This document shows, piece after piece, positions 20,592 to 38,233 of a stretch of DNA of 42,121 nucleotides. This DNA is from an uncultured Methanosarcinales archaeon. GTDB taxonomy: Archaea; Nanobdellota; Nanobdellia; Woesearchaeales; CAZYIM01. Position 1 is the first letter of the stretch, and each line of letters opens with the position of its first letter. A model generated the notes under the pieces. It worked only from the letters and a program-made list of their open reading frames with translations, did no database searches and was not told where the DNA came from. Where the stretch lies: positions 1-42,121 of the forward strand of contig CAZYIM010000024.1 of assembly GCA_964647565.1 (NCBI GenBank), written 5' to 3'. The translations under genes were made by a program, and so were the position numbers.

Positions 20592-21080
20592 ATGCTTAAG
20601 CAATCACAAATAAAGCAGGTTTTTATCTATATTTTTTTAATGCTTATTGTAGGCGCACTCTTTCTGGTGGGATATAAAGCATTTGATTCCTTAATGCAGA
20701 AGAATTGTGAAGCTGAGAAGATAAGTTTTCAGAAAACTTTTTTTGGTCTGGTCAACAGGTTCAGCCTTTATGGTGCGTTAAATAGAGAATCCTTACATCT
20801 TCCATGTGATTTCTATATGCTTTGCTTGGCTGACGCCTCTAAATTAGGAAATACAGCCTATGATGGCGGTAATAAGTATATCGATGATGCTGTTCAATCC
20901 GGCTCTGCAAACATTTTTCTATTAACATTTGAAAATAAGACCATTGATGCAGTGGGAACCTCTAGGAAGATCCAAATTTATAATCCTGAAAAAACACTTT
21001 GCATTAAAAAGTTGTCTGGTGTTGTCAAAATAGAATTTGCAGGTCGTTCTAACACCACAAGGATTAGGCCTTTCTCATAA
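20592..21080 (+). CDS. Pilin-like protein (class III signal peptide)
   Basis: MLKQSQ followed by the hydrophobic stretch VFIYIFLMLIVGALFLVG; alternative start at 20577. Confidence 0.65.
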   Translation: MLKQSQIKQVFIYIFLMLIVGALFLVGYKAFDSLMQKNCEAEKISFQKTFFGLVNRFSLYGALNRESLHLPCDFYMLCLADASKLGNTAYDGGNKYIDDAVQSGSANIFLLTFENKTIDAVGTSRKIQIYNPEKTLCIKKLSGVVKIEFAGRSNTTRIRPFS

Positions 21081-21081
21081 A

Positions 21082-22143
21082 ATGAACAGGAAAGCACAGA
21101 TTGAAATACAGTTCAATTGGATTTTTGTATTTATAGTAGGTGCCATCATCCTTGGGTTCTTTATCTTTATTGTCAAGTCTCAACTTAAGGCATCTGATGA
21201 TGAGATGGCTGTCAACAGCATAAAGAAACTGCAGTCTGTTATAGCAAGCTCTGAGAGGGCTTCAGATACCTTTAAGACCATAATCATACCAAGATCGAAT
21301 ATTCAATTCAATTGTGAACCAGGGCAGGACACTCCTGCTTTCACAAATTTCGAGATAGAGAAACCTCGCGTGGTTCAGGATACAGAGTTCAATATATTGT
21401 TCGCACCGCACAAGATATCTGGAAACCAGCTCTATACTTGGACTCTCGACTGGAAAGTGCCGTATAGGATTGGTTATTTTCTGATGATATCAAATAGGAA
21501 GCATAAATATGTGGTTGTGAATAATACTAAGCCAGGATTAGCACGAACTCTTTTTAAGCTATTGCCAAATAATCTGACCAAAGAAATTTGGCATGATCCA
21601 ATTGACATCAAGAATCACAACTATAAATCAACACGGTTTATTTTTTTTGCAGATCCTAATGTAGACAATTATGTATTGGATACTTCTTTTAAAGATCAGG
21701 AAGTCAGTGCAATAAACATCCAATCATCGTCACTGGATGGGTTAGGTGAAATTGAGTTCTTTAAACTTGATGGTCAGAAATTCAAGCGGGATACTGCTTT
21801 GCCATTTCTCGAATTCCCAAGCATTGCAGGAGCTATATTTTCTGCCGACGCAGACGTATACAAATGCAATATGCAGAAAGCCCTGGAACGCTTAAAAGTG
21901 ATGAACCAGATTGTTCTAAGACGGTTGAATAACATCTCATATGTTTTGGACGAGCAAGTTAAGCCCAATACTCATTTCTGTTCTGACACCTATTATTATA
22001 CTTCGATAATCTCTACGAATGAAATTAATAAGAACATAAAATTTGCTAAAGATAACCTTACGGTTATCAATAATCATGCTACGCTTATGAAGCTAGACAA
22101 TGATTTCATAACCAAAGGAGAAAATTGCGCTTTTATTTACTAA
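21082..22143 (+). CDS. Pilin-like protein (class III signal peptide)
   Basis: MNRKAQIEIQFNWIFVFIVGAIILGFFIFI; start at ATG 21082 via TAAAATG coupling. Confidence 0.8.
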   Translation: MNRKAQIEIQFNWIFVFIVGAIILGFFIFIVKSQLKASDDEMAVNSIKKLQSVIASSERASDTFKTIIIPRSNIQFNCEPGQDTPAFTNFEIEKPRVVQDTEFNILFAPHKISGNQLYTWTLDWKVPYRIGYFLMISNRKHKYVVVNNTKPGLARTLFKLLPNNLTKEIWHDPIDIKNHNYKSTRFIFFADPNVDNYVLDTSFKDQEVSAINIQSSSLDGLGEIEFFKLDGQKFKRDTALPFLEFPSIAGAIFSADADVYKCNMQKALERLKVMNQIVLRRLNNISYVLDEQVKPNTHFCSDTYYYTSIISTNEINKNIKFAKDNLTVINNHATLMKLDNDFITKGENCAFIY

Positions 22144-22144
22144 G

Positions 22145-22648
22145 ATGAAAAAGAAATCGCAAATAAGGATGGGAGAATCTGTTGCAGTCATTATCATAGT
22201 GACTATTCTGATTGTGGTGGGTATTGCCATATTTTCTCAAATGGAAAAGCGAAGAATGGAAGGCAAAGAGTTGGAATTCGAGGAATATGATGTGATTGCT
22301 GTTTCACAAAGAGTTTCTGCCCTTCCTGAACTTCAGAAGTCAGACCAGGGCATATCCAAGATGGTGACCTTTGATATCCAACGCATACATGCCCTTACAG
22401 GACTAATTAACTCATCAAAGCCAGGTTCGAGAACGCGAACCTACTATAATACTATATTTGGCACATCTAATATCTATGTGCAAGAGATATACAATGGAGG
22501 CGCATCAAATAAGCTTTATTCAATCTATAATAACACACCTGTAAACTTTACACGTATGACTCCATCGAGGATTTATGTCAGCCTCTATGATCCTCTAAAA
22601 AATAGCTATGCATTAGGCGTATTAACAGTTGAACAATACAATTCGTGA
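22145..22648 (+). CDS. Pilin-like protein (class III signal peptide)
   Basis: MKKKSQIRMGESVAVIIIVTILIVVGIAIF; TAAGATG coupling. Confidence 0.8.
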   Translation: MKKKSQIRMGESVAVIIIVTILIVVGIAIFSQMEKRRMEGKELEFEEYDVIAVSQRVSALPELQKSDQGISKMVTFDIQRIHALTGLINSSKPGSRTRTYYNTIFGTSNIYVQEIYNGGASNKLYSIYNNTPVNFTRMTPSRIYVSLYDPLKNSYALGVLTVEQYNS

Positions 22649-22653
22649 TATTC

Positions 22654-23139: not shown

Positions 23140-23175
23140 AAAGATTTTTAAAACTGTTTTACAAGGGATGAAACT

Positions 23176-23283
23176 ATGGAAACAGAAGATCGAAGCATGG
23201 CTCCAAACACCCTGATCAGATGGATAATATTTATTGCAGGCACACTTCTGTTGATGTTCATAATATATAGGGTCGCATTTTAA
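23176..23283 (+). CDS. 35-aa single-TM small protein (not in ORF track)
   Basis: METEDRSMAPNTLIRWIIFIAGTLLLMFIIYRVAF*. It fills the gap, has a purine-rich GGGATGA upstream, and its stop is coupled to the next ATG (TAAGATG). Confidence 0.55.
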   Translation: METEDRSMAPNTLIRWIIFIAGTLLLMFIIYRVAF

Positions 23284-23284
23284 G

Positions 23285-25059: not shown

Positions 25060-25095
25060 AAAGACATAAATAGGTGTTAAACAATTACAATTAAG

Positions 25096-25227: not shown

Positions 25228-25231
25228 TAAG

Positions 25232-26044
25232 ATGATAAAAAAAAGAGGTACTAATTATTTGGGTATTATTCTGGTTGTGATAGTGATACTTATAGTGGCA
25301 GCTATTGCATTGAGAGTTCCTAAGCTAGGCGCATCAACTATTTATAACATTACTCTTCCTGCATGCAAGCGACCAGACGGCACAGCCTGCCAGATCTCAG
25401 ATGTGGTTGATACAGAATACTGTCCCTACAACGATGCTCTTGAAGGACTAGATAGAGATTGTATGGGTAGATTGAAAAATAAATCTATTTATTCTAAACA
25501 TATTATTTATGGAGATTATATAGTTGGAGATGTTCTACACCGTCGACAAGAATATAAAACTTATCTTGGGTTTTGTGAATACCATCCTCAAAATAAGGCT
25601 TGTGCCTTTATTCCATTAAAAGAATGTGTTGACGGAAGAATTGAGGAACCTTGTCTGTGCGGCGATATCAAAGATGCTCTGGGGAACAGGGTTGGTATGA
25701 AAACAGGGATTTGTGATGAGGGTAATTTTTTTAGTCCTGCTGGCAGAAATATAGGCTTGTTGCCTTGTTTCATGGTCCAGGATTGCAATGATATCTGTGA
25801 TGAAGTTAAAGAGATTCATAAAGATAACAATGGTAATATTATCACAGATAATACATTATGGAAGCCCGAAAATTTTGTTGAATACCAAAAAGTTGGCCAA
25901 AGAACTGTGCAAGTGAATGGAGAAACAAAGAACATATGTACCCGAACCCAAATACCTTTCTGCAAATACAGTTACTGTTTCTCAAACCAGAATCAATGTA
26001 AATTAGATGAAACTCACAATATATGTGTTGAGAATATCCCTTGA
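25232..26044 (+). CDS. Cys-rich pilin-like protein
   Basis: MIKKRGTNYLGIILVVIVILIVAAIAL (ATG 25232 after TAAG); IEEPCLCGD module. Confidence 0.75.
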   Translation: MIKKRGTNYLGIILVVIVILIVAAIALRVPKLGASTIYNITLPACKRPDGTACQISDVVDTEYCPYNDALEGLDRDCMGRLKNKSIYSKHIIYGDYIVGDVLHRRQEYKTYLGFCEYHPQNKACAFIPLKECVDGRIEEPCLCGDIKDALGNRVGMKTGICDEGNFFSPAGRNIGLLPCFMVQDCNDICDEVKEIHKDNNGNIITDNTLWKPENFVEYQKVGQRTVQVNGETKNICTRTQIPFCKYSYCFSNQNQCKLDETHNICVENIP

Positions 26045-26057
26045 AGCTATCACAATA

Positions 26058-26088
26058 TTTATATATGCTCGATTGAATAATGGGAGGT
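26058..26088 (+). promoter_or_regulatory. TATA box and RBS of small pilin 1
   Basis: TTTATATA at 26058-26065; GGAGGT at 26083-26088 before ATG 26092. Confidence 0.55.
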
Positions 26089-26091
26089 AAG

Positions 26092-26355
26092 ATGAGAATC
26101 ATAAAAAACAAGCAAGGAGTCAGTCTTTCTATCAATACAATAATCATTACAGTCTTAGCTATTTTAGTGTTGGTCATTGTAGCGTTCTTAGTGGCCAGAC
26201 AGTTAGGGTTGATTGGACCTGCAACGAGCTGTATAACTGAAGGCGGCGTCTGTAGATCAGATTGCCCTTATGAGAATACTATAAGTGGCAGCAATCTTTG
26301 TAAAAACCCATCAATGACTTGCTGCAGTCCGAATCCTATCAATGAACCTAACTGA
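26092..26355 (+). CDS. Small pilin 1 with six-Cys head
   Basis: KQG-VSLSINTIIITVLAILVLVIVAFLV; C-x6-C-x3-C-x11-C-x6-CC. Confidence 0.82.
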   Translation: MRIIKNKQGVSLSINTIIITVLAILVLVIVAFLVARQLGLIGPATSCITEGGVCRSDCPYENTISGSNLCKNPSMTCCSPNPINEPN

Positions 26356-26379
26356 AAGGATAGAACCTAGTACATAGTC

Positions 26380-26481
26380 ATTTCAGAAAACTTACAAAAT
26401 TCTTGCAGAATTTTGAAGTTGCTGAAATTAATAATTTCCGCGAACTTACAAAATTGAAAATCAATTTTAAAGTTTAGGAAA
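26380..26481. repeat. Two tandem copies of a ~47-bp bulged inverted repeat
   Basis: ATTTCAG..AACTT-A-CAAAATTCT/AGAATTTTG-AAGTT..CTGAAAT (26380-26428) and TTTCC..AACTT-A-CAAAATTGA/TCAATTTT..AAGTT..GGAAA (26435-26481). Confidence 0.75.
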
Positions 26482-26492
26482 GCTTTGCTTTC

Positions 26493-26554
26493 CGTAAACT
26501 TTATATACTCAATAGTCCAAAAATCTAGTATAATTATTAAAAATTCAGAGGTGA
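26493..26554 (+). promoter_or_regulatory. BRE/TATA promoter and RBS of small pilin 2
   Basis: CGTAAAC-TTTATATA (26493-26507); GAGGTGA at 26548-26554 before ATG 26560. Confidence 0.6.
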
Positions 26555-26559
26555 ATGTT

Positions 26560-26811
26560 ATGAAAAAGGCTCAGGGCATCAGCGTCAATGTTATCATTAT
26601 AGCTGCAATTGCAATTCTAGTTCTTGTTATCCTTGCAGTACTCTTGCTTAGAAGCGCCAGAGAACAAGGCACAGCAACAGCATGTGAGGGTCTCGGAGGC
26701 ACTTGCACCAGCAGTTGCGAGAACTTGCCAGGATTATATGGTCCTTCTCCTGCAAGGTGTAGTATACAAGGTGAGGTTTGCTGTATACCTATTCTAGATG
26801 AAACTAACTAA
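26560..26811 (+). CDS. Small pilin 2 with six-Cys head (candidate major pilin)
   Basis: MKKAQGISVNVIIIAAIAILVLVILAVLL; C-x6-C-x3-C-x13-C-x6-CC; own promoter and strong RBS. Confidence 0.85.
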   Translation: MKKAQGISVNVIIIAAIAILVLVILAVLLLRSAREQGTATACEGLGGTCTSSCENLPGLYGPSPARCSIQGEVCCIPILDETN

Positions 26812-26812
26812 G

Positions 26813-27085
26813 ATGACAACTAAAATATTCGGTTCAAAAAGAGGTGCAGAACTATCCATTAACACCATAATTATAGTTGTTCTTGCTATTCTTGTCTTGG
26901 TGATAGTTGCAGTTCTGGTTGCCAGGTATGTCAGGAGAGTTCCAGAAGCAGGAGCCTGTATATCCAAGGGGGGAGTCTGTAGTCCTGATTGTCCATCTGA
27001 AAGGAGAATAACAGGCTCTAATCTTTGTCCAAATCCGAGTGATGATTGTTGCAGCCCTATTTCTGTTAGGGATCCAGATCGATAA
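26813..27085 (+). CDS. Small pilin 3 with six-Cys head, close paralog of pilin 1
   Basis: KRG-AELSINTIIIVVLAILVLVIVAVLV; CISKGGVCSPDCP..GSNLCPNP..CCSP; TAAGATG coupling. Confidence 0.82.
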   Translation: MTTKIFGSKRGAELSINTIIIVVLAILVLVIVAVLVARYVRRVPEAGACISKGGVCSPDCPSERRITGSNLCPNPSDDCCSPISVRDPDR

Positions 27086-27086
27086 A

Positions 27087-28985
27087 ATGTCCTTTTCAAA
27101 AAGAGGTATGGAGTTTGGACTTAGTACTGTCGTTACTATACTTGTACTTCTTTTTTGTGCACTTCTGGTTACCAACCTAATTGGCAATACAACCCGAGTT
27201 GGTGTGAGAACAGGATTAGATTGTACTCTGGTCAATGGAAGATGTACAGAATCACCTAATTGCAGACCTGATGAGACTCATGCAGAAGGCTGGCAATGCT
27301 CAAAGAAAACCCAGATTTGCTGCAGGCCAAGGATTGGAGCAGGGACAGGTACTGAAAGCCCTGGCGGCGAAGCAGCACCAGGAGAAGCTGGCACAATAGG
27401 AGATAATAATCTGTTGTTATTGTGGTTCTTGGGTGCAGAACCTAAATTTGATGAAGCCAAGCCTGTTGTCACAAACGAGCCACTTGTAATGGAGGTTGGA
27501 AAGACAATCTCTTTTAAGGCGAGTGCAGATGGACCTGAGATCGAGACGACAGGAGACCATGTCAAAGTTGTTAGAAAATGTCTTGGCTATTATTATATGA
27601 AAGGACTTGAACATTATGATAAGTATGTTGAGTTTTCAGTTAAAGGTAAAACAACATACTTTCAGAACTTTCCTTGTAAACAAGATCTGAAGGAGACTCC
27701 TTTTCAACTGAAATTTACTCCTAACTTCTTCCATAAGTACGTGGATGAGCATGGTGGAGAACTAAGGGTTGTCCTTTCTGCATTCAACAATAAAAAATGC
27801 ATAGAATGTAGCAGAGACTTTGATAAACCTGAGACTGTCAGCAAGTTCTTTCTAAAGGACAACTGGGCTGCATACATTGAGATGCCGCTTGTGTTGAACC
27901 TTCCGGAAGGCACCAAGACTCCTACAATCGAGATTGAGAGGGTGGCTGATGACAAGTGCATAGCCTATTGCTATCTGCCTGCAGGCCAGTCTGGTACTAA
28001 CAAGATTGAATACTGTAAGAGCCTGATATTAAACCAGCCTCCCGAAGGAAGAGATTGTGCGCAATGGATACATACTAAAGATTATAAAGAACCAACAGGT
28101 AGCAATTCTCTCTGGTCTGGAACTGCATTATCCGCCGTGGGTCTTGATCTTGTAAAAAGAAAGACTACTGGCGTACTATCTCCTAATCCAACTAGGCAAA
28201 CCTATTGTTTATATGGTGATATGTCTTCAAGTTTTAATACAGACTCTTTAACAAATCAAGGTGATTATGACGGCATAAACTTTGTCGAGGTCCAAGAGGT
28301 GTGCAAAGAAATTGCTTATGCAGAATCGGATAGTAAATGTGAAGGCTATTCAAAATGTACAGATATGCCAAAAGGCTTATGTGCGGGGCCTTGTGGAGAA
28401 GAACTTAACTGTGTATGGGCATCATCATACAAAGATGAAGAGCAATGTGTAAGCTGTACAGATTCAATATGCTATAATTTCAAAAGCTGGGATTCTTGTG
28501 AGGTTGAGACTAGGGATATTGATGCTGGATGTACTATGCAGTGTAAATGGGTGCGGCCTGACTTAAATATTGTGAACGGCGAGTGCCAACTTTGCAGTGC
28601 ATTCCTACGTGATAATTCAGGTAGCGGATCAGACTGCGAAGCTTACAAGGACAAAACAGATTGTCATGAAAACATTTGCAAGTCTAAATTCGAAGGTCAG
28701 CAGGATGAATGTTACTTTAATGAGAAACAAAACAAATGCCTTGGTTGTTATGATATTGAGCGCGCAATTATTGCAAATCAGTGGTTAGGTACTGACGATT
28801 GTGAGATATACAACTATCTTGAGATCGATATAGCTGGCAAAGAAGAGCTTTGCAATGACGAGACATACGGTAATCCCTGCAATTATTATATTGATGCAGA
28901 TCCTAAAGGCTGCGTCTGGGTAGATGACACAATCGGATGTCAGGCAGCACATATCAGGCAGCAGAATAATTTGAACCTTGATTGA
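27087..28985 (+). CDS. Large Cys-rich pilin-like protein (six-Cys head plus C-terminal Cys repeats)
   Basis: MSFSKRGMEFGLSTVVTILVLLFCALLV (ATG 27087, TAAAATG); C-x6-C-x5-C-x11-C-x6-CC; four C-terminal repeats ending in CxW/CxF. Confidence 0.78.
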   Translation: MSFSKRGMEFGLSTVVTILVLLFCALLVTNLIGNTTRVGVRTGLDCTLVNGRCTESPNCRPDETHAEGWQCSKKTQICCRPRIGAGTGTESPGGEAAPGEAGTIGDNNLLLLWFLGAEPKFDEAKPVVTNEPLVMEVGKTISFKASADGPEIETTGDHVKVVRKCLGYYYMKGLEHYDKYVEFSVKGKTTYFQNFPCKQDLKETPFQLKFTPNFFHKYVDEHGGELRVVLSAFNNKKCIECSRDFDKPETVSKFFLKDNWAAYIEMPLVLNLPEGTKTPTIEIERVADDKCIAYCYLPAGQSGTNKIEYCKSLILNQPPEGRDCAQWIHTKDYKEPTGSNSLWSGTALSAVGLDLVKRKTTGVLSPNPTRQTYCLYGDMSSSFNTDSLTNQGDYDGINFVEVQEVCKEIAYAESDSKCEGYSKCTDMPKGLCAGPCGEELNCVWASSYKDEEQCVSCTDSICYNFKSWDSCEVETRDIDAGCTMQCKWVRPDLNIVNGECQLCSAFLRDNSGSGSDCEAYKDKTDCHENICKSKFEGQQDECYFNEKQNKCLGCYDIERAIIANQWLGTDDCEIYNYLEIDIAGKEELCNDETYGNPCNYYIDADPKGCVWVDDTIGCQAAHIRQQNNLNLD

Positions 28986-29002
28986 AGTTCTCATATTCCA
29001 AA

Positions 29003-29974
29003 ATGTATTTAGATAAGAAAGCCGCAATAAACTATTTTGTTGCCATAATCTTGGCAGTAGTTTTTTTACTAATAGCCTCTACTGCTTTTTCTAATATTGT
29101 CCGTACCACAACAGATACTGCTGGATCTGTAACCGAGTGTACAGGTTTTATGGGTGAAAAAGGCGAATGTCGAATGAAATGCCAGGAAGGTGAAACTGGC
29201 TTTGAAGCTGAAGATGTGTTTGGTTGTGGTAAAAAGCTTGAGGATGAAGAGAGAAAGGCCTTTGATGCCAAGTATGAGAAGAAATTAAAGGAAAATCCTG
29301 AGGAACTTGCAGGTATAAGCAGGAATCCAGAAGAAAATATCTTTTGTTGTCTTAGTATGGAGGAAACAAAGACCAAGACCTGGGTTGCTGAATTTGAAGA
29401 GGTTATCCTCCGAGTTTATGGTGCAAGCGTGCCAAGTTGTCAGGGTCCTGTCGCAGTGTGGCTAAGGACAGACAAATACCCGCCCAGTAACTACCCTGCG
29501 GGGTGTCCTAAAGTAAACAGTAAGATATGTGATGTGACTTGCAGCAGCAACTGCAGAACTAACGGACCGTGTCCTGCAGACAGTGCCTCTTTTGTCCAAT
29601 GGGTGCTGGAGAGATATCACTTCCAGAACAACAACTTCCCCAATGTTCCACATCTAGATTTGCCTACTGCCCAAGAACAGGCAACCAAGTTCAAAGCTGT
29701 TGAGAATATCATCCCAGTTGTAGATCCCACTGCCAAGCCAAGCGATTTTAAGAATATCAAACCAGAATATGAAGGTGCGAACGCGATTAAAAAAGGAGAT
29801 CTTGTTTTCTTTGCTGACGACACAGGAAAGATCGCTGATGTGGGTATCTATACGGCTAATAAAGAATTGGTGAAAGCAGGAGCAGTATCCATAAAATATG
29901 TGACTCTTGATGAAGAGCACTATGTTGGACACTACAGGTTCTGCATAAAAGATGAAATATGTGACGTGAAATGA
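29003..29974 (+). CDS. Pilin-like protein with degenerate NlpC/P60 domain
   Basis: KKA-AINYFVAIILAVVFLLIA; DSASFVQWV (cf. DCSGFV), TAQEQ, KGDLVFF, ADVGIY (cf. HVGIY), LVKA (cf. IHA). TTG 28982 is an alternative start. Confidence 0.75.
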   Translation: MYLDKKAAINYFVAIILAVVFLLIASTAFSNIVRTTTDTAGSVTECTGFMGEKGECRMKCQEGETGFEAEDVFGCGKKLEDEERKAFDAKYEKKLKENPEELAGISRNPEENIFCCLSMEETKTKTWVAEFEEVILRVYGASVPSCQGPVAVWLRTDKYPPSNYPAGCPKVNSKICDVTCSSNCRTNGPCPADSASFVQWVLERYHFQNNNFPNVPHLDLPTAQEQATKFKAVENIIPVVDPTAKPSDFKNIKPEYEGANAIKKGDLVFFADDTGKIADVGIYTANKELVKAGAVSIKYVTLDEEHYVGHYRFCIKDEICDVK

Positions 29975-31380
29975 GTTCTGCAAGAAAAGCCCAGATGGAT
30001 CCAGTTTTCCTAGGTAAGGTGCTGTTCACTGTCATGGGAGTTCTTCTTGCGTTCTTTGTTGGTGGTAAGGTCTATGCAGCTGTTGTTGGCGGTGCACACT
30101 CGACAACCAAAGGAGACTTCCTGAACCTGGTCGCAGACCTAGAGTTCATGCTCTTCATGGAAGACTCCACAATGGCCCAACACACACTCTACCTCGAGAA
30201 CAACTATGTCATCGTCGGTTTCGGATTCGATCCCGCGATGAGTACATTGGATTATATACAGTATGAAGATAAATTTATACTCAAACCTTACAATATAGAT
30301 GGCGGAAAATGCTACATGAAGCCATGTCTTTGCCTTTACAAAAGAGAACCCCAACAATTCAAAGATGCTAATTCTATTAGCAATGACAAAGCAAAAAGAG
30401 AAGCGAAGAAGAATGTCATAGAATGTCATAGCTTTGAGACCAAGGGTGCTGTACAGTTCTTTACATTGGCGGGAAAGAATTATTATTATTGTACTGCTGG
30501 AGCGGTAGATGAAGTTACACCAAAAATAAGCTACCCTGCTAACACTCCTGCTGAACTTGCAGATCCTAAGAGAACATATAATGAAGAGTATAAATATATG
30601 TATTTCAAAGGAGACTCAAATAAATGCAATCTGATGACACTCTATGTAGATGTCTATAGCTACCCTGGAAAATCAAAACAACTTGTGTTTATGGCGCCGA
30701 TCTACTCAAACAAGAATAATGTCCAATCAAGGGGTAATTATTATGGTTCCAAACAAGGGCAGGACTTAACGAGCAGATATTATAGTATGTTTGTCTGCCC
30801 TTCGATTGTAGAATCTGTACCCGATTGTGTCGGAAAAAAATCACATGATGTTGTATCAACAAATTGGGCAAACACAGAATGTGATGCTGCAATATATTCT
30901 AGTGAAAAAGCGTTATGTATATATGAAGACAACAAGTGCCATCACGAATGTGTTCATCTTTGTTCAGAGGCTATGAACACAATAACAGAAACTGGTTTGA
31001 TAACCGAACCCTGTGCATGTGCAGATGATTATAAGAAGTATGGCTATTGCTTGACTGTCGAAGATCCTACTACTGGTGATGAGGTGCAACAATATTTAGA
31101 TTTAGATTGTTCAGCTAAAAGTGTGACTAAATGTGAGGAATATTGTTCGACTAGTATAAGCGGAAGATCCTGTAATCAAGACGAAACTCTTAGTTGCCAA
31201 AATGATCTTTGCCAAATTGCTGTAACAGAGGCCCAATCTAGCAATCAACAGCTTAAGCGTGGTAAGCGCTGGGCATGTCAACCTTTTGAAACCAATAGTC
31301 CTCATAGTTCAGGCGCAACATCTTTTGGATCTACAGGCACTAAAATATGGCAATGTGGTCTAGAACAAGTTGATATTTAA
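29971..31380 (+). CDS. Cys-rich pilin-like protein
   Basis: RKAQMDPVFLGKVLFTVMGVLLAFFVG; ATGA overlap; PCLCLY and ITEPCAC modules. Confidence 0.78.
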   Translation: MSSARKAQMDPVFLGKVLFTVMGVLLAFFVGGKVYAAVVGGAHSTTKGDFLNLVADLEFMLFMEDSTMAQHTLYLENNYVIVGFGFDPAMSTLDYIQYEDKFILKPYNIDGGKCYMKPCLCLYKREPQQFKDANSISNDKAKREAKKNVIECHSFETKGAVQFFTLAGKNYYYCTAGAVDEVTPKISYPANTPAELADPKRTYNEEYKYMYFKGDSNKCNLMTLYVDVYSYPGKSKQLVFMAPIYSNKNNVQSRGNYYGSKQGQDLTSRYYSMFVCPSIVESVPDCVGKKSHDVVSTNWANTECDAAIYSSEKALCIYEDNKCHHECVHLCSEAMNTITETGLITEPCACADDYKKYGYCLTVEDPTTGDEVQQYLDLDCSAKSVTKCEEYCSTSISGRSCNQDETLSCQNDLCQIAVTEAQSSNQQLKRGKRWACQPFETNSPHSSGATSFGSTGTKIWQCGLEQVDI

Positions 31381-32414
31381 AAAAGTTTTTGAGGTGGATT
31401 TTGCAAGAAGGGTGTGGCTTGTTTTTGGGCATTTTTTCCCTGGGCATCCTTTTTTTCAACAAAATAGATCTCATCCGCATTGGATGTTCCATCTGATCTT
31501 AATCCTTTTCTAAAAACACAAAAGACTCCCTTTTTTCCTTTGAACTTATTTAAGTCAACATCTTCAACAAATCCAAATTTCTGGGTGATGTTGCCTGAAA
31601 ATTCCATGACATAATCAGGGTTTTCCCAATCACGATCCTCTTTTGAATAATAGATAAAAAATCCTCTACGATCTTTAGCAGTATTCCTATTGTTATCAAT
31701 TGAATACGCTAAGGATAACGCGTCTACTTTATTAGAAAGACCATAATTTGTAAAAGCAATCTCATAATCTGTTACAACATCCTTGGAAACAATCTGAAGT
31801 TTCTTCCAGCTTTCAAACTTGAATGGTACGCCTCTGTAGTCTGGCAATGAATCTTCTGATGTTATGTTTCTCGCCCATATGATTGTTGAAGGTATTGTGA
31901 AATGTATATCTGAGTTCGCAACTGCTACCATATCTTCTTTTCCATCTCCATCCAGGTCTGCCATTACGCCAGCCCATATCTTGGGATTCTGGAGTTCTTC
32001 AGGAAGCCTTTCGAACCTATCAAAAGTGCCATTGCTGTTTTTTGAGAAGTATAATCCCCCGTTGTTTGATCCTGTGCCTTTTTCAATTACTACTATATCT
32101 TCTAAGTTGTCATTGGTTAATTTACCTTTGAATAGGTTGTAGGGTCTTTCCAGCTGCTGTTCAAATTCCTTTGGTTGGGAGAACTTACCCTTGCCTTGGT
32201 TCTCAAGATACATTAGGTTTGTGTTCCATTTGTTAGAATCATTCTTGTCTCTGCCAACAAACACAATATCCGAATTGCCATCCTTTTTTCTGTCGACAAC
32301 TGCTATTTTCCTGACTTCGTAGTTCTTGGTCTGGCTGGTTGCCTTAGTTGGCATGAAGTAGGATGCTGCGGTTGTCAGCATTGCCAGAGTAATTATTCCT
32401 AATTTCTTGAGCAT
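31377..32414 (-). CDS. Secreted FG-GAP/VCBS-like repeat (beta-propeller) protein
   Basis: Encoded on the minus strand, so the track's + label is wrong: CAT at 32412-32414 reads ATG CTC AAG AAA = MLKK, and the stop is TTA at 31377-31379. Signal peptide plus ADLDGDGKEDMV, DRKKDGNSDIV and LTNDNLEDIV repeats. Confidence 0.8.
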   Translation of the reverse strand: MLKKLGIITLAMLTTAASYFMPTKATSQTKNYEVRKIAVVDRKKDGNSDIVFVGRDKNDSNKWNTNLMYLENQGKGKFSQPKEFEQQLERPYNLFKGKLTNDNLEDIVVIEKGTGSNNGGLYFSKNSNGTFDRFERLPEELQNPKIWAGVMADLDGDGKEDMVAVANSDIHFTIPSTIIWARNITSEDSLPDYRGVPFKFESWKKLQIVSKDVVTDYEIAFTNYGLSNKVDALSLAYSIDNNRNTAKDRRGFFIYYSKEDRDWENPDYVMEFSGNITQKFGFVEDVDLNKFKGKKGVFCVFRKGLRSDGTSNADEIYFVEKKDAQGKNAQKQATPFLQNPPQKLF

Positions 32415-32439
32415 TCTGGTCTAAAGGTGGTCATTTCCC

Positions 32440-32454
32440 TTTATAAATCTTTCG
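32440..32454 (-). promoter_or_regulatory. BRE/TATA promoter of the FG-GAP gene (probably leaderless mRNA)
   Basis: Minus strand reads CGAAAGA-TTTATAAA, 25 nt upstream of the ATG. Confidence 0.6.
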
Positions 32455-32806
32455 ATTTATTACCACTTTGTAGTGAATATCTTTCACGATTTCTGAAATT
32501 ATACAACAACCTCTGTTTCTTTATCCGCAAGCACCTCAACCGCCATATTGTCTTCTTGTCAAGAACAGGTTGTATCTCCCATTTCCAAAGTTTGGTTTGA
32601 TTTTCCATAGAATATTTGCTTGAAAAAAGCCTTTATATGCCTTCACAAACAAAATCCAGAGCATTTCCGAAAACAAGTAGTCCTGGCCAGACAGAACTGA
32701 CCATGTTCCTGAACCAAGTGCAGGGTTATGGTCTGGGGAGTAGGACATGCATAGCATGTCTGTCTGTGTCATGTATGAATGCTTGTTTAATAAAGACTCT
32801 AATTTA

Positions 32807-32846
32807 TTTCGTAATATACAAAATCTACAATTTTGAAGTCTTGAAA
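32807..32846. repeat. Degenerate copy of the bulged inverted repeat
   Basis: TTTCG..TACAAAAT-CTACA-ATTTTGAAGTC-TTGAAA. Confidence 0.5.
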
Positions 32847-32860
32847 ATTAAAACTTCTTT

Positions 32861-32878
32861 CCAAAACATATATAAACC
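32861..32878 (+). promoter_or_regulatory. TATA promoter of the second pilin-like operon
   Basis: CCAAAACA-TATATAAACC; the TATA box ends 23 nt before ATG 32900. Confidence 0.55.
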
Positions 32879-32899
32879 TAAACCTCTAGTTTCAACTTA

Positions 32900-33877
32900 A
32901 TGTTGGTGAGGAGTAAAAGAGGTGAAACAACTCCTGGTTGGTGGGTTGTAATATTAGTACTTGTATCTATATGTATAGCAGGATTATTCATGTTTGTCAA
33001 TGGTGTTGTAGAGGATACGACCTTTTGGCAGAAATTCTATTCAAGGGATATGGCATTTGCAGTCAATGCAATGCACTCAGCACAAGGTAAGCTTATGCTT
33101 GGCTACCAGATTGGACATACACAGAAGGTTTTCAATGTTAAGTTAGATGGAGACCGAGTAGGTGTTGGTCTGAAAGCAGAAGAGGAGATTGGCTCACACT
33201 ATCTCAAGTTTTTTCGATTCCCTGCCTCACATTATGTTGATATAATTCCTGATGAGATAACACCATATTATTTCTCTCTAGAAAGACAAGGGGAGAAGAT
33301 ATACCTGCATCTTGACAAGGAACCGCCTAAATCTTGCCCAGGTCCAACCACCAAAGATGATTTCAAGGCCAAGAAGATATTCGTGGATTCCAAAGCCAAG
33401 GGAACAGGAGTCCAGGCAATGACCCTCAAAGAGGGGGATATGACATCTGCTATTGTCACTAGAACTATGAGTTCTATTATTGGGGAACAAACATTGCTTA
33501 ACAGTCTTCCTACAAGACCAGATGCTTCAACAATTACAGAGTCCAATGCAGACATGATCCTAAGCCTGCATCTTGAGTCTGGTTCATCTAACTATCTAAG
33601 GATGTATTATGAACCAAATATAAAGCTGTTACATGCTGAAAAATTAGGCTGTCATTTCTTATACGAGATAAACCAGTTGTTTCCTCTCAGCTTTTTTGAC
33701 GGTGTGGACCATCCTCCAACTCTTCCTCCTTCAATAAATAGATACAATATTGACAAACCAGTCTTATATATTGTGATGGGAAGCATCCAGCATTACACTA
33801 ACAATGACAAGCAGAAACTATTGATAGAAAAAACACCTATTGCAATTAAAAACGCAGTTAAGAAGTACTATGAATAA
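32900..33877 (+). CDS. Pilin-like protein with degenerate N-acetylmuramoyl-L-alanine amidase (Amidase_3)-like domain
   Basis: KRG-ETTPGWWVVILVLVSICIAGLF; ordered motifs KIFVDSKAKG (cf. IxIDPGHGG), LKEGD (cf. LxEKD), NADMILSLH (cf. ADLFISIH), PVLYIVMGSI (cf. PAVLVExGFI), AIKNAVKKYY. Confidence 0.68.
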   Translation: MLVRSKRGETTPGWWVVILVLVSICIAGLFMFVNGVVEDTTFWQKFYSRDMAFAVNAMHSAQGKLMLGYQIGHTQKVFNVKLDGDRVGVGLKAEEEIGSHYLKFFRFPASHYVDIIPDEITPYYFSLERQGEKIYLHLDKEPPKSCPGPTTKDDFKAKKIFVDSKAKGTGVQAMTLKEGDMTSAIVTRTMSSIIGEQTLLNSLPTRPDASTITESNADMILSLHLESGSSNYLRMYYEPNIKLLHAEKLGCHFLYEINQLFPLSFFDGVDHPPTLPPSINRYNIDKPVLYIVMGSIQHYTNNDKQKLLIEKTPIAIKNAVKKYYE

Positions 33878-34406
33878 GAAAGCAGAAGCACATAAATTCC
33901 TGGAATTTCTGCCAAGGATAGTTTTTTTAGTCATAGCTTTCCTAATAGTAGGTCTATACATCAGCTTCTTTAAGGTAAGCCATGTCAGGACCTTTGAGAT
34001 AGAGCAGGAGTTGCTATTAAACAGGCTCTACTTTTCCCCTGATTTGATCACATATACAGACCTAGACACGGGAAGAACATATCCTGGAGTAATTGATCTG
34101 GATAAAGTCCGGACAAGTGTATTAGAAAACTCCTTGAAATACACACAGGATAACTACATTGCAGCAAAGATAACAATCCAAGATGCAAGTTTTGATGAAA
34201 TAACTTACAAGGATCCCTTGCCAAGAAAAGCAATTGCCTATCTGAATGAGGCGGGGTATATCCGCTGGGAAGACCAAGCCATACTTGGATGGAAGGGAAG
34301 GGGCGCTTATAGATTCTTCCAAAGGAGGATTCCGATCGAGTATGTGGACAACGGAGTGAAAAAACCAGGCTTTATGCTTGTAAACATTATCAAGGCAAAC
34401 TATTAA
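33870..34406 (+). CDS. Pilin-like protein (class III signal peptide)
   Basis: MNKKAEAHKFLEFLPRIVFLVIAFLIVGLYI; overlaps the upstream stop. Confidence 0.75.
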   Translation: MNKKAEAHKFLEFLPRIVFLVIAFLIVGLYISFFKVSHVRTFEIEQELLLNRLYFSPDLITYTDLDTGRTYPGVIDLDKVRTSVLENSLKYTQDNYIAAKITIQDASFDEITYKDPLPRKAIAYLNEAGYIRWEDQAILGWKGRGAYRFFQRRIPIEYVDNGVKKPGFMLVNIIKANY

Positions 34407-34407
34407 A

Positions 34408-35682
34408 ATGAAAAACAGGAAATCACAATCAGTAATATCAGATGTTTTTTGGTATATTGTATTTGCTTTTGCAATGGTGATCTTCTATTTTATATATGCA
34501 CTAGGTGCCAAGAATATCCAGGTCGAAAACGAAGTGACAACCCAATACCAGGTCCTATTGGCAGAGAAAGTGCTCGAAGGATATCTTGACACGGAGGTGT
34601 TGCCTGAGTTTGAAGGATATGATGGTCAGGGTCTGAAAGGACAGTATTTGTTGAAAGGTCTTAACTTTGCTGTGCACCCATCCGCAAAATATGCATTCAT
34701 GCATCTTACATGGCCCAAGGATTTTAAGGAGCCTGAGACAAGACTGACTGATTATAATACTAATCTGATGTCTGATGGAGAAATAAAAGATATTGAAAGA
34801 ACTTTGGCATACCTTGCACTGGAAAAGAATTTTCATGTAGGTGTTATACTAGTGCAATCTATAGACAGGGATTGTAAGGCTTTTTTGACAGAAGTCTGGA
34901 ATTATGGAAATTGGAAAAAGAAGACTGATGCAATCCTGTTGATCACAACATCAGATTATCAAGGTGTTGCTTTTACGTGCATGGCAGTGGACAAGAAACA
35001 TGAACTTGTTATGGACGATACAGTCCTTGTAGATACTGTTGCAAACATGTTGCAATACTTCAAGAGAAACGAGATCCACGACGGTATATACTATACGCTA
35101 AAAGAGATGAATCGTAAGGTTAATGGAGAACTGACTATAGGTTCCCTGCCAAAAACAATAAGAGATTATCTCATGGAGAGAGCAGGAAACACAGATTATG
35201 ACGATATTATTAAAGATGCTACATTAAATTATTTTCAAACTGCATATGGAGAAGAATGGTGCATAGAATTAAATGGGGAAATTTACGACAGCTTGAATAA
35301 ACTTACAACATATTCTAAAACAATTGGACTAAGAAGTAATATAGCTGGCGTATTTTCTGGACCTTTTGTTTTTTGTCCTAGAGGGAGTTATAGTTATGAT
35401 TTCGAACCTAAAATTGACGGGGATAACAGAAAATGGGGGAACTATTACAGCCTTTTTGAAGAGAAATACTTCAAGAACTACCTGGTAAAATATAAAACAC
35501 CTACTAAAGTTGATCAAGTCATAGGTCTTAAGGGTGTTGAACTACCAAAAAAAATCAACGAACAAAAATACAATACAGGAAAAAGACCAATACAAATTAT
35601 TAGAAAACTTCCAGTCATGCCGACTGGATTTGTCAACCTGAAATTAACAATTGGAGTGAAATTCGACACATATCAAGAATGA
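34408..35682 (+). CDS. Pilin-like protein with inserted TPM-like domain
   Basis: RKSQSVISDVFWYIVFAFAMVIFYFIYAL; LTDYNTNLMSDGEIKDIERTL..VGVILVQSI..W..DAILLI resembles the TPM domain pattern. Confidence 0.65.
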   Translation: MKNRKSQSVISDVFWYIVFAFAMVIFYFIYALGAKNIQVENEVTTQYQVLLAEKVLEGYLDTEVLPEFEGYDGQGLKGQYLLKGLNFAVHPSAKYAFMHLTWPKDFKEPETRLTDYNTNLMSDGEIKDIERTLAYLALEKNFHVGVILVQSIDRDCKAFLTEVWNYGNWKKKTDAILLITTSDYQGVAFTCMAVDKKHELVMDDTVLVDTVANMLQYFKRNEIHDGIYYTLKEMNRKVNGELTIGSLPKTIRDYLMERAGNTDYDDIIKDATLNYFQTAYGEEWCIELNGEIYDSLNKLTTYSKTIGLRSNIAGVFSGPFVFCPRGSYSYDFEPKIDGDNRKWGNYYSLFEEKYFKNYLVKYKTPTKVDQVIGLKGVELPKKINEQKYNTGKRPIQIIRKLPVMPTGFVNLKLTIGVKFDTYQE

Positions 35683-38150
35683 TAAAGAACAAAAAATCCC
35701 AGATATTTGTGATCTTCATAGTTTTCTTTTCAATACTAGTGCTTATAGTTGCTTTCACAGCGCTGATGAGAAAATACAATGGTACAGCAACTGTATGCGA
35801 TCCTAACCAAAACCAAGGTCCTAGTTGTGTAGATGAACAAATAGGCCTGTATGGCTTCTCAATATATAGAACCTTCCATAGGGTTGAGAATGATCTTGAC
35901 GTACTAGACTCGTCTGCAAAGTACTCTCTTTCAGAAGCCTTGTTCAATCTGACTGAGAAAGGAGGATTTGCAATCACAGGCAATGCAACTGTTGACAATG
36001 CCCAGGCAAACAAGCCCTGTAGTTTCTACAGCTATCCTGTGTGGATATCCTTGCAAAAAAATTGCTATCCTGACTATCAAAACCATCTGATGTTTTATTT
36101 TACCAAGAGAATGAAAACCAAGCTGGAATATTTTGCTGATTCAGACCTGGATATTGAATATGATTACGTGATCAAACAAGACGGCAATAAACCCTCAGTC
36201 CCATTATTCTTACAAGGCAATCCTAAAGAAGAACTTGATTTTGCAGTCTCTCCATATGACGTGGCTTTGCCTACTATGGATCCCAACTACCCTGCAAATG
36301 CAGACGTGGACATCATTAAAAAAAGGATAGAAAAATATGAAAGGCATATACAGACATATAGCAAGAAATACAATGTTCCTGGAAGTATAATACGAGCTGT
36401 GATTGCCAAAGAATCTTCTGGTGTTGCAGATAAACAAGGCTCTACTGGAGATTATGGACTGATGCAGATAGTCCCTGTTTATGCTACTGGCAAATACAAA
36501 GGCAAGCATCTGCATCATAATGAATGTGTCAAGGAATGTGGATTCAAAAAAGCTAAAAATGGAGCCCAAGTGGATACAACAGAGTATTATGAACCAGAAA
36601 AGAACATATGCTGTGGGACTTATATACTTGCTGAAAGCTATGATAAATGCAAGGGTGAGCCTCCTAAGCAATACATAAAAAAGACTGACTGCTGTGGTGG
36701 TTGTGATGATAGACAACTACCCGCTGGAATTGACAATTGCAATGCCTCTACATCAGATCCGAGCTGTTGCCAGGGGTGCATCAGAGTTACATATTACTCT
36801 GGCTGGGGTTGTGCCCTAAGAAGGTACAATGGTTGGGGGCCTTGTGGAGATGATGACTATGTTGAGAGAGCTTTAGCATGGAATGGTAAGTTTGGCGGTA
36901 ATCCTTATATTGATATCAGCAACATCGGAGTCTACTCTCTTTTAGCGCCATTCGTAGCGACACAGGATTTTGATCTGAGTGTATTTGAAGATGCCATAGA
37001 CTTTTCAAAGGGATTAAATCCTTTGCATGAAAATTTACCTCCTCCAGGACAGCCCTGCAATGATGCAGAAACATTCGATGATTGTGTCCAAGATCATATT
37101 ACAGATTTCAATGACAATAATGAGATGCAAATAAGTACTGAATGTGAAAACGAGCCCAACCTTTACAACTATGTTGACAGCATACAAGATTGTGCAAACC
37201 AGCCAAGAACATCCTGCTATTGTGAGTTATTTAACATACCTGATTCATACCCTGTTAATTTTAAACTTGACCCTACTTATATCCAAATTTCTTCAGGGGG
37301 TCAGAATATCAAAAGCACACTCGATATTAAACCCTTTAAACCCTTAGGCACACCAGTTTTTACAGGACCTGGTTTTAATATCAATATAAAGAAATCAACT
37401 TTCCTTTTCAAACCAGAACAAGAAGATAAACCCTTAATCTTAATTGAAGATCCGACGCAGCTAGACAAGAAAAAGTTGGAAATGGAATCCCAAAATCAAG
37501 AGTTGATGAAATGCAATCTTGACAAGACATATAAAGACACATATCGCTTCTGTGCAAGGACCAAGCCAGTGCATAGCTATAGTTATGCTATCAAAGCCCA
37601 TCAACAAAAGGAATATTCATACTCAACCAATGATGCCCTTATTAAGTTTGCAGTCACTCTTGATGACCAGAAAGCGCCTGAAAAGATTGAAGGCCTAAAA
37701 GTTATTGATAAGTCCGCTGAAAGCAATTCTATTATCTTACAATGGGAAAAAAGTGCAATCAATGACTTGTATTTCTATAATGTTTATTGTGAACTGGGTG
37801 ATAGGACAATTACATCACATGCAAACTTAATAGACCTTACACCTTCCCTAATTCTCTTTCCACGAACAACTGATGATGATATAGTGACAGAAGTTAGAGA
37901 ATGCAATGGACAACCAATCGCTGATTCGAACTTACCAGATTTAACACAATATCATTTTGTTGTTACTGCCAGGGATATTAGAGGGAATGAAGAAACTCAG
38001 TTTTATGATTCTGTTGGAGGGATCTCTTGCTCTCCTTCACATGAGTCAGATCCATTGTACATGCTTGCATGCAAGCCGCCTATTGTAATGCCCGAGTTAA
38101 ACAAGCACAAGACCAATGTTGTTAGTGGTTCAGTTGCTGCAACACCTTAA
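35679..38150 (+). CDS. Pilin-like protein with lytic transglycosylase (SLT) domain and C-terminal FN3 domain
   Basis: KKSQIFVIFIVFFSILVLIVAF; SKKYNVPGSIIRAVIAKES (catalytic Glu codon at 36411), DYGLMQI, EPEKNICCGTYIL, ALRRYNG, YVERA. FN3 segment APEKIEGL..LQW..YNVY..YHFVVTARD.GNE. Confidence 0.85.
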   Translation: MIKNKKSQIFVIFIVFFSILVLIVAFTALMRKYNGTATVCDPNQNQGPSCVDEQIGLYGFSIYRTFHRVENDLDVLDSSAKYSLSEALFNLTEKGGFAITGNATVDNAQANKPCSFYSYPVWISLQKNCYPDYQNHLMFYFTKRMKTKLEYFADSDLDIEYDYVIKQDGNKPSVPLFLQGNPKEELDFAVSPYDVALPTMDPNYPANADVDIIKKRIEKYERHIQTYSKKYNVPGSIIRAVIAKESSGVADKQGSTGDYGLMQIVPVYATGKYKGKHLHHNECVKECGFKKAKNGAQVDTTEYYEPEKNICCGTYILAESYDKCKGEPPKQYIKKTDCCGGCDDRQLPAGIDNCNASTSDPSCCQGCIRVTYYSGWGCALRRYNGWGPCGDDDYVERALAWNGKFGGNPYIDISNIGVYSLLAPFVATQDFDLSVFEDAIDFSKGLNPLHENLPPPGQPCNDAETFDDCVQDHITDFNDNNEMQISTECENEPNLYNYVDSIQDCANQPRTSCYCELFNIPDSYPVNFKLDPTYIQISSGGQNIKSTLDIKPFKPLGTPVFTGPGFNINIKKSTFLFKPEQEDKPLILIEDPTQLDKKKLEMESQNQELMKCNLDKTYKDTYRFCARTKPVHSYSYAIKAHQQKEYSYSTNDALIKFAVTLDDQKAPEKIEGLKVIDKSAESNSIILQWEKSAINDLYFYNVYCELGDRTITSHANLIDLTPSLILFPRTTDDDIVTEVRECNGQPIADSNLPDLTQYHFVVTARDIRGNEETQFYDSVGGISCSPSHESDPLYMLACKPPIVMPELNKHKTNVVSGSVAATP

Positions 38151-38204: not shown

Positions 38205-38233
38205 AAGTTCCTTTTTTCAAAATGGGGGTTATT

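Follow-up and report, generated by a model that had tools for sequence, protein, structure and literature searches.

Contig CAZYIM010000024.1 of an uncultured archaeon (42,121 nucleotides) was analysed over its whole length, which is called the window below, and C24 where it is set beside the other contigs of the same assembly (GCA_964647565.1; 2.68 Mb in 86 contigs, 86.9% complete, 1.85% contamination). The locus at 9.85–38.15 kb is best explained as one representative of an operon that is conserved among Woesearchaeota-type DPANN archaea and specifies a surface apparatus, encoding two giant surface proteins and about 16 proteins with class III (type IV pilin) N-termini. An initial annotation, made from the letters of the sequence, had singled out the pilin-like cluster within this locus and described it as carrying three folds of peptidoglycan hydrolase; the observation of the cluster is confirmed, and the genes belong to a real, conserved and largely undescribed apparatus. 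In the reading favoured here, to which a probability of about 0.55 is assigned, this apparatus would be a class III-dependent filament or pseudopilus built in trans, with an SLT domain cutting bacterial glycan at the point of contact and degenerate modules that at most bind. The observations behind this reading are the conservation of the locus, its N-terminal motifs, the homologies of its domains, the state of their catalytic residues and a predicted heterodimer of two cluster proteins, p2 and p3 (numbered as in Table 1).

A conserved run of pilin-like genes

Between 20577 and 38150, 18 open reading frames (ORFs) follow one another on the plus strand in a co-directional run, joined by one minus-strand gene. 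A strict test for a class III-type N-terminus ([KR][GAS] in a short leader, then 16 residues of which at least 10 are strongly hydrophobic and none is charged) is passed by 14 of the 18. Three further ORFs carry the motif or a variant of it by eye or by orthology, namely those at 20577 (KQS/Q, the slash standing between positions -1 and +1), 26080 (NKQG/V) and 33840 (KKA/E, weak). The ORF at 32616-32900, which starts with TTG, lacks the motif and has no homologue, is unlikely to be a gene. Most gene junctions measure -11 to +17 bases. Four wider gaps measure 47-204 bases, and a fifth, of 1519 bases, contains the minus-strand gene. The claim of about 18 tightly coupled genes with K/R-K/R-[GAS] starts is thus borne out in substance. 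A similar pattern is met genome-wide in 127 of 4610 ORFs of at least 80 residues; this 17-kb stretch accounts for 13 of them, and no other contig of the genome is as dense in them as C24. When the window is pooled with six syntenic loci from relatives (L023 to L028), 81 of 99 cluster ORFs pass the strict test; among these, the residue at -1 is G 58 times, A 18 times and S 5 times, Q occupies +1 in 40, K or R almost always fills -2 and -3, and the leader is mostly 4-7 residues long. By these features the N-termini of the cluster look like class III signals.

The comparison with related genomes that the initial annotation had proposed found the same gene order in six, from two other families of the order. 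The order runs from the giant protein and the Cys-rich anchored protein through p1-p6, a variable gene, two to four small six-Cys proteins and further variable genes to p11, p12, a TPM protein or domain, the SLT protein and then RPA. Synteny from the giant proteins through the cluster to RPA, YdjM and RadA spans six relatives, RadA lying further downstream of RPA in three of them. The 2109-residue giant matches giants of about 2500 residues in two relatives (tblastn, E 3e-114 and 2e-63), with weak CarboxypepD_reg and Ig-like matches in Pfam. Because it is homologous to these upstream giants, the conserved unit (9850-38150) starts at 9850 and not at 20592, where the pilin-like cluster had been taken to begin. 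The 1492-residue protein that follows has no family in Pfam; its homologues in L023 and L024 (E 2e-38 and 2e-32) occupy the corresponding place. Further upstream the relatives carry a class III protein of about 1000 residues and then ribosomal protein genes; the homologue of that class III protein lies here on another contig (C10:61647-64559), and in the window the four coupled genes at 28-9777 stand in its place.

The most widely kept cluster gene, p2, belongs to a family that 300 of the 401 genomes sampled in the phylum possess (a tally that includes the unpublished genomes G243, G244, G322, G333 and G396, and whose p2 query began one codon upstream of the ATG at 21082), and with E no higher than 1e-10 the p11 family turned up in 36 of the order's 151 genomes. 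Unpublished genomes enter the phylum-wide tallies of p2 and SLT and no other claim made here. In the 2.68-Mb genome, the genes for p2 and for the SLT protein are single-copy. The nearest Atlas clusters of p2 are all 'hypothetical protein' of Nanobdellota, NCBIfam has no family for any pilin-like protein of the cluster, and p1 has none in Pfam either. The variable p8 has no family in Pfam or NCBIfam and no orthologue detected in the six relatives.

The small six-Cys proteins are encoded by three tandem genes here and by two to four tandem paralogues in relatives. A 16-sequence alignment of them, in which the third small protein began one codon after its ATG at 26813, gives a near-invariant helix and near-invariant Cys columns, and an AlphaFold2 (AF2) model (predicted local distance difference test, pLDDT, 77) has a helix at 14-44 and a knot-like head. 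One of the three copies reaches Pfam Defensin_beta (21.3 bits, cut-off 21). Searched with Foldseek, the model matched nothing with an E of 0.001 or below; the 26 best rows were defensins or big defensins, with a best E of 0.39, which is not significant, a template modelling (TM) score of 0.62 on the target and a root-mean-square deviation of 2.2 Å over 37 columns. This likeness may be convergence of a small disulfide knot. By eye, the heads in the window and in the L023-L028 orthologues have a terminal CC pair and are not cationic. The small six-Cys proteins are candidate major subunits with a small disulfide knot.

Co-folding of the pilins, another check proposed at the outset, was carried out on p1-p4 without their hydrophobic helices, modelled as one four-chain complex from our own alignments of 4-5 rows. 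It predicted a p2-p3 heterodimer, with an interaction prediction score from aligned errors (ipSAE) of 0.76 against 0.00 for the best of three controls, a pLDDT of 82 for the partner and agreement of the runs in at least 88% of contacts. The ipSAE mark is reached by 116 of 157 solved complexes and by 2 of 215 mismatched pairs, a yardstick that is rough here, with four chains and shallow alignments. For p1 and p4 the four-chain model names no confident contacts, which says nothing either way. Binding of p2 to p3 through their globular parts is supported by this prediction.

Wall-enzyme modules on the pilin-type scaffold

The gene for p14 is the last of the cluster in all six relatives and encodes the sole SLT domain of this genome (Pfam E 1.6e-11, 44.3 bits, cut-off 21.3). 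In SLT / GH23 family 1 lytic transglycosylases, the functional motifs are the Glu of E-S, G-L-x-Q and Y-N-G. An alignment of seven domains has K-E-S-S-G, G-L-M-Q and Y-N-G-W-G kept in p14; the catalytic Glu of E-S is kept in six of the seven orthologous domains, the window copy included, and L025 reads Q-S; G-L-x-Q is likewise conserved in the alignment. The Glu of p14 aligns with the E-S of MltC, and the family profile matches MltC (9.1e-15) and 43 further PDB sequences, among them Slt70, MltE, MltF, a phage tape-measure protein and T7 gp16. A word-index search with p14 returned six matches including itself, with two Amidase_2+SLT proteins that have the same kind of N-terminus. Judged by its motifs, the lytic transglycosylase of p14 looks catalytically intact and is predicted to cleave murein. 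In L025 the terminal protein (L025:11863-14940) combines Amidase_2 with an SLT domain whose catalytic Glu has become Gln; one wall-enzyme module may have replaced the other in function. The preceding p13 is tied to p14, since the TPM domain that forms a separate gene here is part of the SLT protein itself in L024 (13637-17179) and L028 (9717-13145), owing to a gene split or a fusion.

The C-terminal domain of p9 matches NLPC_P60 in Pfam with E 1.7e-5 (25.2 bits, cut-off 23), over profile positions 38-97 of 105 only, and BLASTP alignments with the NlpC/P60 proteins P0013 (1e-12) and P0010 (2e-13) cover the whole domain. An exhaustive search of 1.84 billion representatives gave eight weak matches, and six of the seven that are not p9 itself are NlpC/P60 proteins; a word-index search returned only p9, and the six relatives yielded no orthologue of the domain. 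NlpC/P60 catalysis depends on a Cys-His-His triad, in which the third residue may also be another polar one. Aligned with P0013 and P0010, p9 has D-S-A for D-C-[SG], D-V-G-I-Y for H-V-G-I-Y and V-K-A-G for I-H-A-G, with Ser, Asp and Lys thus standing at the sites of the Cys, the first His and the second His; both His are also lost relative to PDB entry 7cfl. Since all three triad residues are replaced, the domain would be a relic or a binding module and not a cysteine peptidase.

The relation of p11 to Amidase_3 is visible through its family only. The protein itself has no Amidase_3 match in Pfam, NCBIfam or PDB sequences, a word-index protein search gave no match, and a 7-sequence profile found no amidase among PDB sequences. 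In the family, 4 of 27 members have a Pfam Amidase_3 match (best E 1.4e-16), the window copy not being one of them, and hhalign joins the subgroup of the window to the Amidase_3-bearing subgroup with 99.8% probability (E 1.6e-28) over 278 columns, the full length. By this route the C-terminal domain of p11 is judged homologous to bona fide Amidase_3. The active site of Amidase_3 consists of His-Glu-His metal ligands and a catalytic Glu. In the 27-member alignment, three members (L041, L052 and L059) keep D-P-G-H-G, a Glu, S-x-H and L-E-x-G-N, and p11 has D-S-K-A-K-G, S-L-H and I-V-M-G-S at the motif sites; as the first metal-binding His and the catalytic Glu are gone, the domain is probably inactive. 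The AF2 model of p11 has a mean pLDDT of 53, with about 70-78 in the helices at 11-60 and the strands at 65-138, and its fold matches are therefore weak leads. Within this low-confidence model, residues 155-325 find AmiB, AmiC, CwlV and CwlD among the top five rows (Z 4.8-5.2), and Amidase_3 enzymes account for 10 of the top 50 structure rows (Z 3.8-5.2).

Of the three folds named in the initial annotation, SLT is solid, NlpC/P60 rests on a partial Pfam match extended by related proteins, and Amidase_3, a correct guess of the fold, is reached through the family without a direct match. The accompanying claim, of three enzymes that cut the glycan, the stem peptide and the amide bond of murein, is not supported in that form: only the SLT domain looks active in this genome.

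Across the clade, the scaffolds appear from their sequences to carry an exchangeable set of murein enzymes. In relatives, Pfam finds Amidase_2 (8.2e-27) together with SLT, and Peptidase_M23 (4.2e-20), on the same scaffolds, as also in P0002 and P0003; the M23 domain occupies the position of p7 in L028, where L023 and L027 have FlgD_ig. Intact Amidase_3 motifs stand on the same type of scaffold in L041, L052 and L059. Outside the cluster, this genome has a partial Peptidase_M23 match in a 760-residue frame (C8:5803-5970) and a sub-threshold Amidase_3 match in a 1185-residue frame (C21:23743-24129), which may be further wall-directed proteins. A protein of L025 with a class III-type N-terminus (L025:8734-9978) has a DnaJ domain (Pfam 1.5e-12), which is odd for an exported protein. 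The oppositely oriented FG-GAP repeat gene inserted in the cluster has no counterpart in the six relatives.

Table 1. Features of the window, in order of position; a slash in a leader stands between positions -1 and +1.
Feature	Position	Strand	Remarks
Four coupled genes with RHS/YD-repeat, DUF6443, cadherin-like, Big_9 and PKD domains	28-9777		Sec-type N-termini
Giant secreted protein, 2109 residues	9850..16179	+	First conserved gene of the locus
Cys-rich repeat protein, 1492 residues	16109..20587	+	C-terminal membrane anchor and charged tail
p1, pilin-like, 167 residues	20577..21080	+	Orthologues in 3 of 6 relatives start M-x-[KR]-[AG]/Q-[IV]-x-Q-V-F
p2, pilin-like, 353 residues	21082..22143	+	Leader MNRKA/Q
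p3, pilin-like, 167 residues	22145..22648	+	Leader MKKKS/Q; predicted partner of p2; orthologues in 4 of 6 relatives
p4, pilin-like, 161 residues	22654..23139	+	Leader MRKA/Q-x-E-I; orthologues in 3 of 6 relatives
p5, pilin-like, 266 residues	23285..24085	+	Leader MKKA/Q; orthologues in L023, L024 and L025
p6, pilin-like, 325 residues	24082..25059	+	Leader MKKG/S; orthologues in 4 of 6 relatives
p7, pilin-like, 270 residues	25232..26044	+	Leader MIKKRG/T; variable, Cys-rich
Three tandem small pilin-like genes	26092-26355, 26560-26811, 26813-27085	+	Conserved hydrophobic helix and six-Cys head
p8, pilin-like, 632 residues	27087..28985	+	Leader MSFSKRG/M; Cys-rich, variable
p9, pilin-like	29003..29974	+	C-terminal NlpC/P60-derived domain without catalytic triad
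p10, pilin-like, 469 residues	29971..31380	+	Leader MSSARKA/Q; variable; weak match in L027 only
FG-GAP repeat protein	31377..32414	-	Sec-type N-terminus; inserted in the cluster; Pfam FG-GAP_3 1.7e-10
p11, pilin-like	32900..33877	+	Minor-pseudopilin-like head and degenerate Amidase_3-derived domain
p12, small, membrane-anchored	33870..34406	+	Conserved; orthologues in 5 of 6 relatives
p13, pilin-like, with TPM domain	34408..35682	+	Pfam TPM_phosphatase 8.4e-9
p14, large modular pilin-like, 823 residues	35679..38150	+	N-terminal stalk, SLT domain with Cys-rich insert, beta-rich C-terminal part

Filament, anchored complex or envelope enzyme

For the favoured filament or pseudopilus, we infer processing, polymerisation, the location of the modules, the substrate and the biological role as follows. 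The leaders would be cut by an A24 peptidase encoded elsewhere, and an ATPase/platform pair on other contigs would build a short multi-subunit filament or pseudopilus. Its shaft would consist of the three small six-Cys proteins, and the larger modular subunits, in minor or tip positions, would display the functional modules; among them, the terminal 823-residue subunit would display the apparently intact lytic transglycosylase. The modules derived from Amidase_3 and NlpC/P60 would be at most murein-binding or structural, because their catalytic residues are lost. In the genome, which is 86.9% complete, no penicillin-binding transpeptidase and no SEDS protein (FtsW/RodA) was found, and there is one Mur-ligase-like gene only; there is therefore no sign of murein synthesis by the cell, and a murein wall of the archaeon's own is rejected on these grounds. 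The target would then most likely be the wall of contacted bacteria, be they host, prey or competitor. The filament would keep the enzyme at the contact site, and glycan strands would be opened locally. Wall cutting as a theme is supported across the clade, and in this genome by the SLT domain only; pilus formation and a bacterial target we infer. A bolder version, in which Woesearchaeota and their relatives as a whole have in common a so far undescribed type IV filament with a shaft of tiny pilins with beta-defensin-like heads, a heteromeric set of about a dozen minor subunits and exchangeable hydrolase modules (SLT, Amidase_2, Amidase_3, M23 and NlpC/P60) on pilin stalks, used as a contact-dependent 'wall opener' of bacteria, is speculative and rather doubtful at present.

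The initial annotation had seen no assembly ATPase, platform protein or prepilin peptidase in the window, and indeed Pfam finds no T2SSE ATPase, T2SSF platform or A24 peptidase among its ORFs. Such genes lie on other contigs, where the annotation had proposed to look for them. A genome-wide family search found five T2SSE-type ATPases (on C44, C2, C28, C5 and C20) and four T2SSF platform matches (on C2 and C44), and each of two canonical type IV filament loci (C2:53.7-64.5 kb and C44:1.2-9.4 kb) combines an ATPase with two platform matches and with pilins. Class III proteins also adjoin the ATPase on C28, as a third group. For the peptidase the search found one A24 gene, whose counterparts are intact in five of five relatives that have the cluster.

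Several points weigh against a filament that opens bacterial walls. No cluster protein matches a pilin family (with limits of E 0.1 in Pfam and 0.05 in NCBIfam), and the pilin-type matches of p11 residues 34-113 in structure searches (GspI, XcpV, PilE and PilV, Z 3.9-4.6) are weak. None of ATPase, platform and peptidase lies beside the locus, in the window or upstream in the three relatives examined. The pilins of the C2 and C44 loci, where further class III proteins are also encoded, start M-x-K-G/Q-A-A-x-E-F, unlike the cluster motif, and no particular machine is linked to the cluster proteins. The sole A24 peptidase gene (C25:27733-28600; about 1453-2320 of L006) carries a TAA in frame, located between the two catalytic Asp motifs at C25:27904 (L006 1624-1626); the contigs of two public runs stop at 1611 and resume at 1632-1633, two runs are without cover there, and among the contigs of these four DNA runs no listed piece bridges the TAA. 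As to the enzymes, two of the three hydrolase-type domains of this genome look inactive on their residues, and across the phylum any SLT domain is found in 194 of the 401 sampled genomes (G244 among them), against the 300 with p2, so that wall cutting by SLT is not universal to the apparatus. Finally, p6 has a second hydrophobic segment, Gly-rich and near the C-terminus, with a Gly-zipper match in Pfam for the L024 orthologue, and p12 orthologues are without the K-G cleavage motif; a membrane-embedded complex therefore fits these two proteins better than a fibre does.

These two proteins lead to the rival that survives best, although it is unlikely overall: a membrane-anchored surface complex or layer, bindosome-like and without an extended pilus, in which the class III-type N-termini would act as anchors or short stalks and the SLT domain would degrade free or nearby murein for scavenging or defence. 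Such an arrangement would agree with the lack of assembly genes in the locus and with the C-terminal anchor of the 1492-residue protein, and the predicted contacts between the globular parts of p2 and p3 would suit a complex as well as a fibre. The 2026 survey of archaeal type IV filaments also gives class III signals on non-pilin surface proteins of archaea, the sugar-binding bindosome proteins (PMC13705601). The small six-Cys proteins speak for the filament instead, with a near-invariant helix and two to four tandem paralogues, as expected of a polymerising major subunit. Scavenging in particular meets the difficulty that anhydro-MurNAc kinase (AnmK) was not found in the 86.9% complete genome, which leaves no obvious route to use the product.

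Bacterial trans-envelope machines often bring their own SLT enzyme. By analogy, the hydrolase-type domains could have the archaeon's own envelope, or a glycan other than murein, as their substrate and so let the apparatus pass. The parallel would be with the lytic transglycosylases dedicated to secretion and pilus systems in bacteria; weak matches include EtgA in the PDB and a flagellar assembly lytic transglycosylase in NCBIfam, and the two degenerate domains could be structural. This explanation is nevertheless improbable. With no transpeptidase or SEDS gene and a single Mur-ligase-like gene found in the 86.9% complete genome, nothing points to a wall of murein or pseudomurein, and the modules vary among relatives (SLT, Amidase_2, Amidase_3, M23 and NlpC/P60), as would be expected of adaptation to foreign walls more than of a fixed substrate in the cell itself.

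That the contig is bacterial or chimeric and carries ordinary bacterial wall enzymes, as the typically bacterial SLT, NlpC/P60 and Amidase_3 domains and the label Aminicenantes on 1 of 80 related loci might suggest, is rejected as very improbable indeed, given RadA (Rad51 family, Pfam E 1.1e-84) and RPA directly downstream, the order of cluster then RPA in six other genomes, mostly archaeal labels on p2-family records, and contigs of four public runs that hold 66-84% of the sampled words of window positions 26000-35900. The right end of C24 carries, in Pfam, RPA (38222-39475), a YdjM membrane protein, RadA and a TRAM protein, and the contig is therefore archaeal; by synteny with the six relatives this holds over 9.85-42 kb. 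Among the public runs listed as matching window positions 26000-35900, there is no RNA data set.

The nearest Atlas clusters of two cluster proteins carry Woesearchaeota or Nanobdellota labels, and 80 public loci of the p2 family comprise 36 labelled Woesearchaeota, 13 with Nano-archaeal names, 7 named 'archaeon', 23 'uncultured Methanosarcinales' and 1 'Aminicenantes bacterium'. The assignment to a DPANN-like archaeon made in the initial annotation therefore stands, of the Woesearchaeota type by these labels. The 23 records titled 'uncultured Methanosarcinales archaeon' (among L064-L136) and L127, titled 'Candidatus Aminicenantes bacterium', are probably wrongly labelled or come from mixed bins. 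At 2.68 Mb, the genome exceeds the sampled genomes of the same phylum (listed at 0.5-2.3 Mb) and is large for the group.

Known systems and significance

Large SLT proteins of these lineages, and the idea of a bacterial host or prey, are already published. Castelle et al. (2021; PMC8204110) presented large SLT-domain proteins as specific to Pacearchaeota and Woesearchaeota and proposed attachment to bacterial walls; in their Table S3, family fam00969 is listed for 81% of Pacearchaeota and 59% of Woesearchaeota genomes, with a mean length of 1947 residues and GH23 in 53% of members. Predatory Woesearchaeota have been proposed from GH23 genes (Vigneron et al., 2022; PMC9723730). Like the proteins of these two papers, p14 has a GH23/SLT domain in a large secreted protein. 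The main texts there treat the protein alone, whereas here it has a class III-type N-terminus, the last place in an operon of about 16 genes and neighbours bearing Amidase_3, Amidase_2, M23 and NlpC/P60 domains, none of which they describe. The words 'pili' and 'pilin' are absent from both main texts, and in the supplement of PMC8204110 'pilin' stands for another organism only. Literature searches found no description of the pilin-like operon context, although the supplements of PMC13705601 or of bioRxiv papers may list it.

Modular type IV pilins, represented by PilB and PilC of Streptococcus sanguinis, were defined for bacteria by Raynaud et al. (2021; PMC8179133). Those pilins are bacterial and carry adhesin or lectin modules, whereas the scaffold here is archaeal, its modules are wall hydrolases or relics of them, and incorporation into a filament would be presumed; 'transglycosylase' and 'hydrolase' are absent from the text of PMC8179133. 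In the survey of archaeal filaments in PLoS Genetics (2026; PMC13705601), DPANN pilins are scattered away from ATPase and platform genes, and the present cluster likewise lies apart from such genes in its genome. Unlike the type IV filament systems described from archaea, among them the Epd pili of Methanococcus maripaludis with their dependence on EppA, it matches no described pilin family, and the main text of the survey does not contain 'peptidoglycan', 'hydrolase' or 'transglycosylase'. Secreted peptidoglycan hydrolases of archaea have been reported to kill bacteria (Strock et al., 2025; PMC12352652), in a text that, as here, has murein-free archaea encoding exported murein hydrolases aimed at bacteria. 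Its enzymes are soluble Sec/Tat proteins with wall-binding domains, whereas here a pilin-type scaffold stands in a multi-subunit operon.

As in the locus of the bacterial tip complex GspI-GspJ-GspK, mentioned as a heterotrimer in a passage of PMC8179133, several small pilin-like proteins and one large one are encoded here side by side. Weak structural matches of the p11 head point the same way: its best pilin matches are GspI, XcpV and GspI in the GspK-I-J complex (Z 4.2-4.6). In type II secretion systems, GspI-GspJ-GspK is the minor pseudopilin tip complex, a heteromer formed through globular parts, and binding of that kind is predicted here for p2 and p3. Unlike GspI-GspJ-GspK, the archaeal proteins have far more subunits among them and no secretion machinery alongside, and there is no sequence similarity between the two.

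Woesearchaeota are among the most widespread uncultured archaeal groups, and their hosts and lifestyle are unknown. What the locus adds to the published account is that the SLT proteins of these archaea would be pilin-type subunits of a conserved multi-gene apparatus with amidase and peptidase modules, of whose three wall-enzyme folds one looks active by its residues in the present genome. If this is true, it would offer a concrete organelle to look for in tomograms and defined enzyme and binding modules, the wall types of the partners might be guessed from genomes, and the idea of the modular pilin would extend to archaea and to enzymatic cargo. Should the bolder version of a wall-opening filament also hold, these abundant archaea would live on or off bacteria rather than archaea, and their set of hydrolase modules, active or degenerate, would record the wall type of the partner.

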